From positions 5,728,001-5,792,000 of the forward strand of contig OY759599.1 of the NCBI GenBank assembly GCA_963662465.1: a stretch of DNA of 64,000 nt, given 5' to 3'. A program made the position numbers. Source of the DNA: Desulfatiglandales bacterium (lineage in GTDB: Bacteria; Desulfobacterota; DSM-4660; Desulfatiglandales; Desulfatiglandaceae). This document shows positions 15,001 through 21,000 of this stretch, piece by piece (position 1 is the stretch's first letter; every line of letters starts with the position of its first letter).

Positions 15001-18000
15001 ATTCGAAAAGCCTCAAACAGGGCAGGGTTGTTCATGAAGATGGACAAAATATAAAACATGAGTCCCATGGAAAAAATGGAAATCAGGATGGACTTCAGGA
15101 TGTGCTTCTTTTTGTAATGCCCCATTTCGTGAGCCAGAATTGAAACCAGTTCCTCCTTGGTATGCTTTGAAATGAGGGTGTCAAACAGCACAATCCGCCT
15201 GAAACGGCCAAAACCCGTAAAAAAAGCATTGGACTTGGTGGAGCGCTTGGACCCGTCCATGGTATAGATCCCTTTCATTTTGAATCCCTGCTTTTTAGCG
15301 TAGTCCTCAATGGCCTCCTTCAACTCTCCCTGTTCCAGGGGAATGAATTTATTGAAAATGGGCATGATCACCACGGGTGCGATGAACATCAGAAAGACTT
15401 GAATGACCGTGAGCGCCGCCCAGCAATAAAACCATGCCAGAGGGCCGGTTTGTTCAAAAAACCACAAAATGGCTGAAAACACGGGGGCGCCGATGACAAC
15501 GGCCAGCAACCATCCCTTAAGGATGTCGGTCACAAAGGTTTTTGGCGTCGTCTTGTTAAACCCATATTTTCCCTCGATGACAAAAGTGCCGTAGATGGAA
15601 AAGGGAAGGCTCAAGATCTGCGACCCGAACAGGAGGATCGCGGCAAAAATGAGCCCCGTGGCAATAGGCCCCCATTCCAGACTTCGCGCCCACAGGTCCA
15701 CCCGGTTAAATCCCCCCAACAGAATAAAAGCAATGATCGCGGGTGTCGCGATGGAACCGGTGATCAATCCAAATTGGGTGTTTTCCTTGAGATATTCCTG
15801 TGATTTTTTGTACTTTTCCGCATCATAATAGCCGGAGAAAGCTTCGGGTAATTGTGTTTTAAGATGCTTGACATTTAGGATATCCACAATCATCCCAAGT
15901 ACATAATCCCCCACGAGGATAACCAGAATAATAATCAGGAACGCATTCATGAACGACTCTCCCAGCCCTTTTTCTTACAGGCTTCCTTCACTGCAGGTGG
16001 TGTCGAATCCGCCCCTTGTGTTGTAAATGGTGGTGATTTTTAACCGGCTCGTTTTTAAAATCCGGCTCAAATCATCATATATCCGTTTGGTGACCCCCTC
16101 CTGAAAAAGGCCCACATTTTTAAAACTGACCACATAATATTTTAAGGATTTCAGTTCGATGCATAAGCCCCCTTTCGGATAATATTCAATGATCAATCGC
16201 CCCACATCGGGGAGGCCGCTGAAGGGGCAGCAGGCGATGAATTCCCGGGTTTCGGTTTTGATGTATTGATGAGGACTGTCAAACGCAAAGGTCTCCAGAA
16301 AATCGGTTCTGATGTTGTCGGGACTTTCCCACTGGAAAATCTTTCCTTCCGCCTCGATCATATGGCTAAATCTCCTTTTTCGGATGCACGGGCAAGGCAT
16401 CCGGTTTTTTCAATGGACAGACACATGGGTCTGCCCCCTTCGTATAAGGGCACGCCCGCTATCCATACCCTATCCTCATGGAAAAGCCAATGCGAATTAG
16501 CAGAAAAAAAACCTTGAATTGTTTTTAAAAGCATGTCATAAGCAAATTTCAATCTAACGAATTCTAAAGATTCTAAAGGAATTTAGCGGCGTGTCTTCTT
16601 TTCGTAGCCAGCGAACCATCGGTATGTTTCACATGTTAAACGAGGCGGCAGCATTAATCGCGGCAGCCGCGGACGTGCCCGTGGCTCTGGGAGAGGCGTC
16701 GATGGCATAAACCATCAACAAAACCAACCAGGGCCGCGGGCGTTTTCGCGGCCGTTTTTTTGAGGGGCTGCTTGAATTTGCAGCCCCTTTTTCGTGGATA
16801 CAAGGGATTTTTAAAGAGGGAGGGAAAACTTATGCGAACCGAGATTGTTCACATCGGCGCCAGCGAATTGACCTATGAAATCAGAGAGATCATGCAGGTG
16901 GTGGAAAAATTGACGGACATGGGTCTTAAGGTCACCCTGGAGAACATCGGGGACCCCGTGGCCAAGGGTGAAAGAATTCCCAAATGGTTAAAAGGGATTA
17001 TCGCGGATCTGGCCATGGAAGACGACTCCTACGCTTACAGTGCTACCTTGGGCGTATTGGAAACGCGGGAGTATCTGGCGGCCAAAACCAACCGTAAAAA
17101 CGGGGTCCATGTGGACCGGAAAGATATCCTTTTTTTTAATGGTCTCGGGGATGCCATCACCAAGGTGTACGGCTTCCTGCGCCGTACCGCCAGGGTCATT
17201 ACCCCGACACCCACCTACACGACCCATTCGTCCTCGGAAGCCGCCCATGCGGGGCTCCCCCCCGTGTGCTATCCACTCAATCCCCGGAATCAGTGGTATC
17301 CGGACGTGGTGGAATTGCGGCGGCGGGTCAAATACAATCCCGCCGTGTCCGCCATCCTGATCATCAATCCGGACAACCCCACGGGAATGGTCTACCCGGA
17401 GAACATCCTGGCGGAAATCGTTTCCATTGCCCGAGATTTCGATCTGTTTATCATCGCGGACGAAATTTACCAGAATCTCATTTATAACGGCCATCAAAGC
17501 AAATCTCTGTCCGAAGTGATCGGAGATGTGCCGGGCATTTCCATGAAAGGCATTTCAAAGGAGGTTCCCTGGCCGGGAGGTCGTTGCGGATGGATGGAAG
17601 TCTACAATGCGGACAAGGACCCCATGTTTGCCGACTACATCAAAAGCATCGTCAATGCGAAAATGGTGGAGGTCTGTTCCACGACACTCCCGCAAAAGGC
17701 CATCCCCAGGATTTTTGAACATCCCGCCTACGCGGACCATCTCGTGAAACGCCGCGGGCGCTATGAACATTTTTCAGAAATTGCTTATGAAAAACTGAAA
17801 GGCATCCCCGGCATTATGGTCAACCGGACCAATGGCGCTTTCTATATGACCGTGGTTTTCGAAGAAGGGAGGATAAACCAACACCAGACCCTGCCCATTG
17901 CCGATGTCAAAGTTCGGGAACTGATCGAAAATTTAACCACCACCGGTAAAAAGATGCAGCCGGACAAGCGCTTTGTCTATTACCTGCTGGGGGCAACGGG

Positions 18001-21000
18001 TATTTGCTTGGTTCCACTGACCTCTTTCAGTTCTGATTTGCAGGGATTTCGGATAACCCTGCTGGAAACCGACGAAGCCAAATTTACCAAAACCTTTGAT
18101 ATCCTTTCGGAGAACATCAAACGATATCTGGCATCGGAATAATGCCCAAGGACACCATCAGGGCACGTAGAGGATGACCAGCAGCTCGGCATCCACTTCG
18201 CCGGGGTTGGAAAGATGATGATCAACGTTGGCATTAAAACGATAGGACTCTTTTTGACTCAGGCGGTGTTTTTCCTTGTCCACGAGAAGCGTGACTTCTC
18301 CTGAAACCACATACACAAACTCCTCGCCCTCATGCTGATAGCCGACCCCTTCGTGTTCTGTTCTGGGGGGAATGGTCACGGAAAAAGCCATCAAGTGCTT
18401 ATCGGCTTCGGCCGGTGTGAGGGTTCTGTATGAATAGGCCTGGGTCCGTTTGGCGGCTTCCTTCAGGCGTCTTTCGGGCGAATCATCCATCAAGAGGAAC
18501 GCCCCGGCATCAAGGTTCATGGTTTTGGCGATCTGGAGCAGAAGGGCAACAGGGGGTTCCACCTGCCCATTCTCAACCCATTCCAGATACTCGTCCGAGC
18601 AACCCACCCGGCCGGCCAGTTCGGATAGGTCAATGCCTCTTTCCTGACGCGCCGTTTTAATCCGCCCTCCCACGGGCATGATATCTTCGTTTGTCATTTC
18701 CTGATATCCTTATCTAGTGCCTGAACGAAAACCTTGTTCAGGCACGGTTTTAAGTTTTAAGTAAAAAAACGAAACCATATCATCGCTACCGCTCTTCATT
18801 TCCAGAATTATAGGGCCCAGGTTCTTCGGTGTCAATGGCCTTTGCAAGCACCAGCACCGTGCGCGTGGGAAGATAGAGGCTCAAAGCGTGCCTGTTTTCC
18901 CCCGTTGTTTCGAAAGCGGTAAAATGCCGCTGACCCCGGCGCAACCGGCCGTGACCGCCGTATTCCAGTGCGTCGCTATCCATGATCATCCGATATTCGC
19001 CCGGGGCCATTTCAATGGGATAATCCTTATGGGAACAGGTGGGATGAAAATTGAAGACAAACACCAGCCCGCCCCGCTCAAATGCCAGGACCTTGTGATC
19101 GGAATGTTCGAGCAAAAGGTGTGGCCCCGTCGAACCCAGAAGACGGAAAGCCTTGGCCAGCGCAATCATATGACGATCAAATCGCCCCAAAACCCCATAT
19201 CTCAAATCCGGATTGTCCACGAGGCCCCATTGCCGTCTGGCATGTTCGTAGGACCACCCATTTCCCTCCCGGGGAAAATCAATCCAATCCGGATGTCCGA
19301 ACTCATTGCCCATGAAATTGAGATAACCGTTACCGGCGGTCACAAGCGTAATGAATCTCAGCAACTTGTGAAGGGCCATTCCCCTGTCCACAACCAGGCT
19401 ATCGCCGCCCACCTGCATGTGGTCATAAAGGGCCGATCCCATAAGCCGCAATATCAGGGTCTTATCCCCCACCAGGGCCTGATCATGACTCTCGGCATAA
19501 CCGATGGTTTTTTCATCCATCCTTCGATTGGTCAACTCGTACCACATCTCTCCCAGGGGCCAGTCTTCATCCAGCCGTTCTTTCAGGATTTTGATCCAGA
19601 AATCCGGGACGCCCATGGCCAGTCGATAATCAAATCCCATACCGCCCGCTTCCCTGGGCGCGGCCAGGCCCGGCATGCCGCTGATATCCTCGGCGATGGT
19701 GACGGCACTGGGTCGGATATTATGAATCAGTTCATTAGCCAGGGTCAGATAGGTGAGGGCGTCCTCGTCCACGGCGTCGTTAAAATAATCGGCATAGGAG
19801 ATGAAGGCTTTTCCCAACCCATGATGACGGTAAAGCATACTGGTAATGCCGTCAAAACGGAACCCGTCAAAATGATATTCATCCAGCCAGAATCGGCAGT
19901 TGGAAAGGAGAAAGTGGATCACCTGGGGTTTCGCGTAATTAAAACAGCGGGACCCCCAGGCCTCATGGGTTCCCCGCGCCCCTTCATGAAAATACTGGTA
20001 CGATGTTCCGTCGAAACGACTCAACCCCTCCACTTCATTAGCCACTGCATGGGAATGAACCAGGTCCATAATCACGGACAGACCTAAATCATGGGCGTGG
20101 TCAATCAGGGCCTTCAGGTCTTCCGGAGAACCAAATCGGGATGATGCGGCAAAAAAGCTGGAGACATGATAGCCGAAGGAAGCATAATAGGGATGCTCCT
20201 GAATGCCCATCAGTTGCAGGGCATTATATCCCGCCTCAACAACCCTCGGCAGGATGTACTCGGTAAATTCACGATATGAGCCGACTTTTTTTTCTTCCTG
20301 GGCCATGCCCACATGGGCCTCATAGATAAAAACAGGCCCCGGAGCGGGAACAAAATCATTGGCCGCCCACCGGTAGGATTCAGGTGGAAACCACACCTGG
20401 GCATTGAAGATGAGGGACTCCGGATCCTGCACCACCCGCCTGGCATAGGCGGGAATACGGTCCCCTTCCCCGCCTTTCCAGTGCATGCGAAGCCTGTAAT
20501 GCATTTTGTGAACAAGAATTTCAGCCGGAAACCTAATTTCCCAAACGCCTTCTTGATCAATTCTTTCAAGTTCGAAGGTCTTTGTTTCCCGCCAATCCGT
20601 CATGTCGCCCACAAAAAAGAGAGCCGTTGCATTGGGCGCCCATTCCCGAAAGACCCAGTGGTCCCCGCGAAAATGAAGCCCGAAGAATTCGTGACCCGAT
20701 GCAAAATCCCCCAGACCGATCTTTCCCCCCCGGGTCAGGCGGAGAGCTGCCAGATCCACATGCCGCATTCGCGTCTGAATAATTTCCTCGTAAGGCCGCA
20801 GATACGGATCATTCCGCAATTCGCAATCCGCAATTCGCAATGTCTTTTTTTCAGTCATTGATCAAGGGCCGCTCCAGCATCCGTTCGTAAAGATCCATAT
20901 ACCGGCGCGCGGTAACGGAATGATTAAAGGTGGCCATACCCTCTCTCATCACCCGGGCGATTTCCCTGTTTTTCACATCCCCGGGGAGATTATGGAACGA

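Follow-up and report, generated by a model that had tools for sequence, protein, structure and literature searches.

We describe a compact, probable ribosome-mediated attenuator, predicted to be tuned to alanyl-tRNA, that we consider likely to control a single aminotransferase gene of the PRK06855 family in a Desulfatiglandales bacterium, the product of which most likely makes L-alanine from pyruvate. The element lies on the forward strand of contig OY759599.1, within an analysed window of 64,000 nucleotides from whose first letter all positions are counted, and comprises a leader ORF, a terminator (T1), a second terminator-like hairpin (T2) and the aminotransferase gene, in that order. Its anatomy, conservation, base pairing and geometry were established by computation.

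The leader, its hairpins and the predicted switch

The leader ORF extends from a GTG at 16591 to a TAA ending at 16710 (39 codons, 10 of them alanine codons). It is preceded by a Shine-Dalgarno-like AAGGA at 16576..16580, and close relatives carry AAGG or AGG in a similar place. In-frame ATG codons at 16624 and 16633 offer alternative starts; the GTG and the ATG at 16633 are both retained in 10 of 10 same-genus leaders. We favour the GTG because the Shine-Dalgarno-bearing leaders of the family are mostly 31-39 codons long, within an overall range of 24-49. The first-pass annotation had reported an uncalled leader ORF and a terminator ahead of the enzyme gene, and both are present in the sequence; its 25-residue peptide is the 3' part of the ORF, read from the ATG at 16633. 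Further upstream, a putative sigma70-type promoter can be read from the sequence at 16514..16542 (TTGAAT, 17 nt, extended -10 TG-n-CATAAG). Of the 11 closest leaders inspected, 10 have the same pattern; a consensus promoter scan did not have this site among its picks.

At 16645..16671, the leader contains a block in which seven of nine codons specify alanine (codons 19-21 and 24-27). This density is singular in the genome, where only this one of 132 leader-terminator ORFs has more than three alanines in nine codons. The same genome carries tryptophan and tyrosine leaders of similar build upstream of a DAHP synthase gene and a shikimate-kinase-like gene. The 3' ends of the alanine and tyrosine leaders look alike, but a blastn comparison of the two gave no match. 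A contig from DNA sequencing run X2 is identical to positions 16300-18300 and may be the assembly's own source; among the contigs listed for RNA run X1, only diverged relatives were found over the coding part and none over the leader.

Immediately downstream of the alanine block, and still within the ORF, lies an antiterminator strand (region 2, 16677..16690) that pairs with 16728-16741 (duplex energy -31.6 kcal/mol, z -5.9). T1 occupies 16732..16761, with a hairpin at 16732-16753 (-14.8 kcal/mol) followed by seven T residues. T2, which the first-pass annotation did not mention, occupies 16764..16792, with a hairpin at 16764-16787 (-17.5 kcal/mol) followed by five T residues; through its 5' arm it can also pair with the T1 3' arm. 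When the RNA was folded with a 14-nt ribosome mask, T1 failed to form as long as the ribosome stood at or before codon 25, and formed once it had reached codon 27.

We infer from this architecture a leader that is translated and a switch that responds to alanine. When alanyl-tRNA is short, the ribosome would stall on codons 19-26 and leave 16677-16690 free to pair with the emerging 5' arm of T1, so that T1 could not form. Once released, the T1 3' arm could, in this lineage, go on to sequester the T2 5' arm, and RNA polymerase would continue into the gene. With ample alanine, the ribosome would pass region 2 to the stop codon, T1 would form and transcription would end. Once complete, T2 forms in all equilibrium states, and read-through therefore requires either a relay that acts kinetically or leakage at T2. 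An 8-bp protector helix between regions 1 and 2 can be drawn at this locus; conservation of a hairpin in this register found no support, its pairing over clade A (70%) being not clearly above that of slid controls.

Recurrence and conservation among relatives

The combination of an alanine-rich leader and a terminator is linked to enzyme clade. It was found in 22 of 23, 19 of 22 and 6 of 9 loci of three enzyme clades and elsewhere in 2 of 106, both false positives, with the caveat that kin among the compared loci and genomes are not independent. A later metagenome set gave 33 of 40 against 0 of 39. Inspection removed several candidates: two that satisfied the automatic rule, L037 and L048, are really the ends of small signal-peptide proteins with their own terminators, and L115 corresponds to the tail of the preceding gene in a different reading frame. 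Most members of the PRK06855 family have no such leader. No alanine leader with a terminator was detected in 54 AlaA-like loci with enough upstream DNA or in 44 spirochaete PRK06855 loci, a sample that may miss some lineages; 17 weaker spirochaete matches likewise had none, the highest alanine count being three. It had previously been proposed that the leader occurs in 26 of 32 relatives with an enzyme at least 61% identical and in 0 of 41 at 59% or less. The enrichment at high identity was partly reproduced (at 61% or above, 38 of the 66 loci with sufficient sequence), but the sharp boundary was not, as 8 of 87 loci at 59% or less also scored. In two of these, the supposed leader is the end of a small lipoprotein-like gene; the other six are genuine leaders, in Geobacterales-like loci at 54-59% identity.

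Several features argue that these leaders are read by ribosomes. A start with a Shine-Dalgarno match of at least 4 nt occurs in frame in 66 of 80 leaders, compared with 17 of 160 in the other frames. Within the alanine block of 54 anchored leaders, third codon positions are nearly random (entropy 1.7-2.0 bits) and the first two are fixed, the latter partly by selection because leaders were picked by their alanine count. These observations bear on whether the region is instead an untranslated structured RNA, riboswitch-like or bound by a protein, with the alanine run a by-product of GC-rich GCN repeats. Such repeats are indeed self-complementary and read as alanine on the reverse strand too, for which reason reverse-strand alanine counts are not a valid control, and the naked leader RNA folds better than its shuffled versions (z -3.0). 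However, third positions that vary freely beside constrained first and second positions, together with frame-specific starts, are not what such an RNA predicts. The Rfam models, including T-box, gave seven weak matches in the window, all far below the gathering score, and none in six relatives. We regard an untranslated RNA as highly improbable.

The predicted ribosome-dependent pairing is also conserved. In clade A, 96% of cells in the 2:3 (antiterminator) helix are paired over 38 leaders; in clades B and C together, 79% are paired, with five pairs changed on both sides. The terminator helix is 97% paired in both alignments, with seven pairs changed on both sides in B and C, and the tandem hairpin is present in 33 of 38 clade-A leaders. 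Antiterminator duplexes reach p<=0.05 in 30 of 51 leaders (21 of 23 in A, 8 of 22 in B and 1 of 6 in C), and equilibrium folding with the full terminator reproduces a switch for most of clade A but for only a few loci in B and C. In clade A, the 3' end of region 2 can lie as much as about 20 nt upstream of the stop codon, so that a ribosome positioned there covers it only in part. The first-pass annotation had held that the peptide rather than the RNA is conserved and that its leader sequence types are unrelated. Neither statement survives this comparison: both helices are maintained with compensating changes, and a codon-level motif is common to all three clades. Its central reading, a ribosome-mediated attenuator tuned to alanine, gains from the clade-linked recurrence, the frame-specific starts, the conserved antiterminator and the stall geometry.

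The leader might alternatively sense general translation stress, or act through a sequence-specific arrest of the whiB7 type on a nascent Arg-Ala motif, with its alanine codons secondary. A striking codon bias is consistent with this: arginine preceding alanine is encoded by CGA in 42 of 61 cases, compared with 6 of 136 for other arginine codons in the leaders. RNA pairing found no support as the cause of this CGA-GC(T/G) pair, since a partner was found in 0 of 40 leaders upstream and 1 of 40 downstream. Moreover, the whiB7 uORF responds to many amino acids and antibiotics, according to the available part of its description (PMC10274678). In contrast, the genus of the window has lost the Arg-Ala motif and kept the alanine block. 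Alanine makes up 32% of the last 30 leader codons, compared with 9% for the next residue; at least three alanine codons fall within the antitermination window in 76 of 78 leaders, and the alanine block ends near the edge of that window. We therefore consider stress or arrest sensing quite unlikely and alanyl-tRNA the probable signal.

The PRK06855 enzyme

The predicted target gene (16832..18142, forward strand) encodes a fold-type I PLP aminotransferase of 436 residues. It is probably monocistronic, being flanked by one divergent and one convergent gene. We obtained 710.5 bits with NF005334 (PRK06855; cut-off 443) over positions 1-433 of 434, in line with the 710 bits noted before. The model also matches in M. 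jannaschii; the label MJ1479 for the family is carried over from the first-pass annotation. The enzyme reaches the cut-off of no model with a named function; it scores 183.9 bits with NF006230 (AlaA / PRK08363; cut-off 534) and 165.3 bits with TIGR01265 (tyrosine/nicotianamine aminotransferases; cut-off 292.45).

Judged by sequence and predicted active site, the PRK06855 product is probably an alanine transaminase, and alanine synthesis, the function proposed earlier, remains its likeliest role. Its top sequence and fold matches are the alanine aminotransferase of Pyrococcus and AlaA of E. coli. In AlaA, an N-terminal plug (Tyr15, Ile17, Arg18) and the PLP- and substrate-contacting residues of a narrow site have been described (PMC4094517). 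AlaA Tyr15/Ile17/Arg18, Ile40-Gly41, Tyr129, Asn179, Asp207, Tyr210 and Lys240 (structure 4cvq) align with Y15, I17, R18, I39, G40, Y129, N182, D210, Y213 and K243 of our enzyme, which are invariant in 30 sequences. The plug signature YxIR occurs in 289 of 289 PRK06855 members and 54 of 56 AlaA-like proteins but in 0 of 8 paralogues of this genome. Additionally, the two families nearly exclude each other: among 401 sampled genomes of this phylum, PRK06855 is present in 70, an AlaA-like gene in 36 and both in one, and among 201 spirochaete genomes the counts are 45, 23 and one. In the present genome, moreover, 0 of 15 proteins tested reach an alanine-transaminase cut-off. Against this role, both genes are absent from most of the 401 genomes.

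These data also bear on a reading in which the attenuator is real and tuned to alanine but its target gene encodes a transaminase of broad or other specificity (aromatic, branched-chain or glyoxylate), which would affect the alanine pool through just one of its several activities. The enzyme's position below all named-function cut-offs and the absence of the leader from most PRK06855 members would fit such a role. Fold comparison separates the candidates little, with Z 41.0-41.7 for alanine and 39.9-40.3 for tyrosine aminotransferases; a tyrosine aminotransferase comes to about 1.5 Z or less from the top match. In a tree built with AlaA-like proteins by a quick method, PRK06855 sits on a long branch whose sister group is not resolved. 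The genome also encodes an alanine dehydrogenase, which counts against alanine synthesis by the aminotransferase. Nevertheless, the shared YxIR plug, the near exclusion of AlaA-like genes and the agreement of this genome's leaders with their pathways argue against a broad or different activity, which we judge unlikely.

A wider hypothesis, possible but on balance doubtful, would make PRK06855 a further, unrecognised class of alanine-forming transaminases that replaces AlaA in many anaerobes, spirochaetes and methanococci, with one ancestral dedicated attenuator in three Desulfobacterota clades. In that case, the T1-T2 relay might sharpen the switch, with T2 disabled as well whenever the 3' arm of T1 is released, and the conserved CGA-GC(T/G) pair, immediately 5' of the alanine block, might serve to brake the ribosome.

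Significance and comparison with known systems

If the proposed switch operates, alanine joins the amino acids to which a biosynthetic gene responds through a compact, dedicated leader of its own; whiB7, the published alanine case that we found, is indirect and multi-purpose. Our results also suggest a testable function for an unnamed family of aminotransferases with a wide distribution (70 of 401 sampled genomes of the phylum, 45 of 201 spirochaetes and M. jannaschii); where AlaA is missing, such enzymes could close a gap in alanine synthesis. Both the tandem terminators and the CGA-GC(T/G) pair are small features that are simple to mutate, and may show how an attenuator is tuned to a very common amino acid. 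Neither this leader nor an activity for PRK06855 was described in the papers listed by our literature searches.

Classical attenuators, such as E. coli trpL, hisL, leuL, thrL, pheL and ilvL, combine a short ORF rich in cognate codons with an antiterminator and a terminator. The present element shares the short leader ORF, the cluster of cognate codons, the mutually exclusive antiterminator and intrinsic terminator, and the position directly 5' of an enzyme gene. It differs in the amino acid that would be sensed, in a region 2 wholly inside the ORF, in having no conserved 1:2 hairpin that we could find and, in clade A, in its tandem terminators. The M. tuberculosis ilvB1 leader is a further attenuator of the classical type, as given in the available part of PMC13236596. 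The word alanine does not occur in the main text of PMC2965389 or PMC5314783, whose supplements may list such leaders.

The enzyme resembles E. coli AlaA (4cvq) and the Pyrococcus furiosus alanine aminotransferase (1xi9), its best sequence and fold matches, with aligned plug and PLP/substrate residues. Unlike them, it belongs to a separate family (NF005334), at 26% identity, below the NF006230 cut-off and about 30 residues longer. In Firmicutes, alaT is controlled by an alanine T-box, in which uncharged tRNA-Ala causes antitermination and turns on the alanine transaminase. That system would share the logic proposed here but uses a tRNA-binding RNA rather than a translated leader, and no T-box match was found at our locus. 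AlaT is the main alanine-making enzyme of B. subtilis, as stated in the accessible part of 10.1101/562850.

The closest published parallel is the whiB7/wblC uORF of actinobacteria. The first-pass annotation had listed no alanine attenuator in print, a claim that must be withdrawn, as the accessible part of PMC10274678 presents the whiB7 uORF as an experimentally tested 'Ala leader' attenuator. That lengthy uORF responds to numerous amino acids and drugs, and feeds back through a transcription factor on the alanine aminotransferase gene aspC. As far as the available description allows a comparison, both systems have an alanine-enriched leader, a terminator/antiterminator switch and a loop that ends in an alanine aminotransferase, here a probable one. 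In contrast, the leaders described here have 24-49 codons and lie in cis to the aminotransferase gene, with no WhiB-family regulator downstream.

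The alanine leader and its gene

The alanine leader is a real, well-conserved feature, whose attenuator anatomy can be read directly from the computation. An ORF with a GTG start (16591-16710) encodes 39 aa upstream of the aminotransferase gene at 16832-18142, which scores 710.5 bits on NF005334/PRK06855 (cut-off 443). The leader peptide quoted in the first-pass annotation is present as the last 25 residues of this ORF, and a sensor block places seven Ala within codons 19-27. The first terminator hairpin (T1, 16732-16753) begins 21 nt past the leader stop and is followed by seven T; a second (T2, 16764-16787), absent from that annotation, lies 10 nt downstream of T1 and is followed by five T. 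A sigma70-like pattern at 16514-16542, a putative promoter, was seen in 10 of 11 close leaders and was not returned by a consensus promoter scan. Its neighbours are queF, transcribed divergently, and an XRE-cupin gene, transcribed convergently, so the aminotransferase gene is probably transcribed alone, as its own unit.

A genome-wide scan gave 132 short ORFs that stand before a gene with a hairpin-U tract in between; none of the other 131 exceeds three Ala in nine codons, against seven in this leader. The same scan recovers Trp, Tyr and Phe-rich leaders, so the host appears to use leader attenuation. A Trp-rich leader (L390, four Trp in five codons; G000:C1:4299607, minus strand) precedes a DAHP synthase gene that exceeds the NF006421 cut-off, and its two tandem terminator-like hairpins repeat the two-hairpin build of the alanine leader. 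A Tyr/Phe leader (L391, FYYYYF; G000:C1:2039844, minus strand) and its terminator precede a shikimate-kinase-like gene; the GGPSMV at the end of the leader peptide resembles the GGPSMA of same-genus alanine leaders, and blastn found no DNA match between the ends of the two leader kinds. Just upstream of L391 ends one copy (G000:C1:2039924-2039836) of a repeat of at least 86-92 nt, with at least five copies (the others near 1717929, 41715, 3848275 and 3484010), which may be the end of a mobile element. At G000:C1:3650958 (plus strand), a Phe/Tyr-rich leader and terminator precede an 854-aa ORF. Elsewhere in the window, two neighbouring ORFs of 230 and 332 aa (12039-13742) presumably encode a GGGtGRT protein and its NifU-like partner, and, judged from translations, 18786-29309 (minus strand) holds an apparent glycogen-metabolism cluster with a branching enzyme, a synthase-like protein, a phosphorylase and a 1440-aa debranching-like protein.

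Distribution and selection on the peptide

Relatives came from 80 loci of named species genomes, 401 genomes of the phylum (70 with PRK06855) and 209 genomes of the order (37 with a match, 30 obtained as loci). After removal of ten duplicates and three loci without a start, 165 proteins entered an enzyme tree built by a quick method. A leader was called from at least five Ala in nine codons near the ORF end, an ORF stop 60-400 nt before the gene and a hairpin with a U tract. With five rows having too little DNA, leaders were called in 22 of 23 members of clade A (Desulfatiglandales and kin), 19 of 22 of clade B (Desulfuromonadales, Geopsychrobacteraceae, Deferrisomatales and kin), 6 of 9 of clade C and 2 of 106 loci elsewhere. 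The last two are ends of small lipoprotein-like genes rather than leaders. Judged by sequence, clade C is Geobacterales-like, since it shares 73-87% identity with a named Trichlorobacter fragment, whose identity to the remaining loci does not exceed 67%. Beside a transposase, a Trichlorobacter plasmid (NZ_CP058410.1) carries an unannotated enzyme-gene copy truncated at its 5' end (L392). In a later metagenome set of 80 loci, assigned to clades by nearest protein (one too short, four positives repeating earlier loci), leaders were called at 18 of 22 clade-A loci, 15 of 18 clade-B loci and none of the 39 others.

The clade A and B loci missed by the rule (L004, L010, L018 and L107) still have this arrangement on visual inspection, their Ala being fewer or their U tract weak. 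In L004 the Ala block is cut to three codons, apparently by an in-frame deletion that left the rest of the leader and both hairpins intact; this is either a natural low-sensitivity variant or an assembly slip. The first-pass annotation had confined the leader to enzymes at least 61% identical. This boundary does not hold, as six genuine leaders occur at 54-59% and 38 of 66 loci at or above 61% carry one; because leader presence follows clades A-C, the threshold is a proxy for clade. No alanine leader accompanied by a terminator was found upstream of 44 spirochaete PRK06855 members or 54 AlaA-like genes. Desulfobulbales-type loci (L013, L021-L027, L093 and L120) are likewise without a leader; they have their own promoter-like sequence and sit immediately downstream of a gene whose end encodes a Fis-type helix-turn-helix, by its inferred label probably a sigma54 activator.

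An in-frame start with a Shine-Dalgarno match of at least 4 nt was found in 66 of 80 curated leaders, compared with 17 of 160 in the other two frames. Most curated leaders are 31-39 codons long, which speaks for GTG 16591 as the start in the window. When 54 leaders are aligned on a motif they share, the third positions of codons in the Ala block have entropies of 1.7-2.0 bits and first and second positions 0-0.7 bits over the first three Ala columns, the third-position result alone being free of the Ala-based selection of leaders. Across 51 leaders, the four Ala codons occur in near-equal numbers (127, 125, 122 and 103), whereas enzyme genes favour GCC. The genome has one tRNA-Ala gene for each of three Ala anticodons.

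Leader types previously described as unrelated share one codon motif, anchored in 34 of 51 leaders and in all three clades; it lies two codons ahead of the Ala block and mostly consists of CGA or ATA and then GCT or GCG. The Arg preceding Ala is CGA in 42 of 61 cases, compared with 6 of 136 Arg codons elsewhere in the leaders and 110 of 1410 in enzyme genes, although leader and codon counts overstate the case because kin are not independent. The motif is lost in the window's own genus, and no RNA pairing partner for it was found in the leaders; that CGA-GC(T/G) is a slow codon pair is our guess. Besides tRNA-Arg(ACG) this genome encodes tRNA-Arg(UCG), so that the reading of CGA does not have to depend on inosine wobble.

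A predicted RNA switch with tandem terminators

Region 2, an antiterminator strand inside the leader ORF (16677-16690), pairs over 14 bp with 16728-16741, including the T1 5' arm (the 2:3 helix). When a modelled ribosome covers the RNA as far as 14 nt beyond the first base of its A-site codon, T1 forms with a probability of no more than 0.02 at codons 11-25, of 0.56 at codon 26 and of at least 0.72 at codons 27-38; the value drops once more at codon 39 and at the stop codon, positions for which the model permits RNA behind the ribosome to pair around it. The 2:3 helix is 96% paired in 38 clade-A leaders versus 25-51% in slid controls, mostly with one-sided G-U changes, and 79% paired in 41 leaders of B and C, where five pairs carry changes in both strands; pairing in the terminators is 97% in either alignment. 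For 46 of 51 leaders, own-arm pairing is stronger than pairing with the median arm from other clades, but it exceeds that of the leader's own shuffles at p<=0.05 for only 30 of 51. When the complete terminator is included, equilibrium folding predicts termination at most loci of B and C. To mimic ongoing transcription, the transcript was also ended immediately beyond the 5' arm and the ribosome given a 26-nt footprint, as in PMC13236596; in this setting at least three Ala codons fall at ribosome positions where the ORF holds the T1 arm in 76 of 78 leaders, two further leaders having no arm match. The protector hairpin (1:2), taken in the window's register, is not clearly conserved, being 70% paired over clade A and not distinctly above slid controls.

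A second hairpin 9-14 nt downstream of T1 occurs in 33 of 38 leaders of A, 1 of 36 of B and 0 of 6 of C. The T1 3' arm complements the T2 5' arm (mean -11.5 kcal/mol), which might allow a relay between them but also follows simply from hairpin duplication. In the window, the relay helix appears at intermediate transcript length with the ribosome on the Ala block, but T2 wins once complete, so that any relay would have to act kinetically.

When Ala-tRNA is scarce, the ribosome would stall on codons 19-26, region 2 would capture the T1 5' arm and the freed 3' arm may block T2, so that the gene is transcribed. With ample alanine, a ribosome translating the leader would clear region 2 and T1 would terminate. 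This polarity fits a biosynthetic enzyme, and the leader is very likely an alanine-responsive attenuator.

The enzyme and comparison with known systems

Among solved structures, P. furiosus alanine aminotransferase (1xi9) and E. coli AlaA (4cvq) match best in sequence, followed by tyrosine aminotransferases. The fold prediction, with a mean pLDDT of 85.7 and a poorly modelled stretch at residues 1-14, gives the same ranking, but nearly as a tie (Z 41.7, 41.0 and 40.3, each at rmsd 2.5 over 389, 393 and 376 aligned residues). The AlaA site, as described in PMC4094517, comprises a Tyr15/Ile17/Arg18 plug, Ile40, Gly41, Tyr129, Asn179, Asp207, Tyr210 and Lys240; its counterparts here (Y15, I17, R18, I39, G40, Y129, N182, D210, Y213 and K243) are all invariant in 30 PRK06855 members. 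YxIR occurs in 289 of 289 PRK06855 proteins and none of eight paralogues in the genome, and YxI/VR in 54 of 56 AlaA-like proteins.

In the 401 phylum genomes, PRK06855 occurs in 70, an AlaA-like gene in 36 and both in one (about six expected if independent); in 201 spirochaete genomes the figures are 45, 23 and one (about five expected). This near exclusion is suggestive, since few candidates were scored per genome and kin cluster. None of the 15 proteins scored from this genome passed an alanine-transaminase cut-off; an alanine dehydrogenase is present, and by score the enzyme falls outside PRK08363 and TIGR01265. Alanine-forming activity is likely for PRK06855, and the whole explanation, an alanine-responsive attenuator on an alanine-forming enzyme, fairly likely.

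At the gathering score, Rfam gave no match in the window or in six relatives. The published literature searched, closed-access surveys excepted, contained neither a dedicated alanine leader acting in cis on an aminotransferase nor an activity report for the PRK06855 family. The leader provides a functional lead for PRK06855, and the tandem terminators and the CGA-GC(T/G) pair are two further features open to testing. Its predicted action resembles that of the classical trp, his, leu and ilv attenuators, and it shares those of their defining features that computation can assess, leaving aside the 1:2 hairpin, which is not clearly conserved. Against the first-pass statement that no dedicated alanine attenuator had been found in print stands the whiB7 uORF. 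According to PMC10274678, Ala makes up 25-40% of it; it reacts to alanine starvation and brings about induction of the alanine aminotransferase aspC, and the authors term it an 'Ala leader'. As described there, that system is long, multi-sensing and indirect, unlike the leader in the window.
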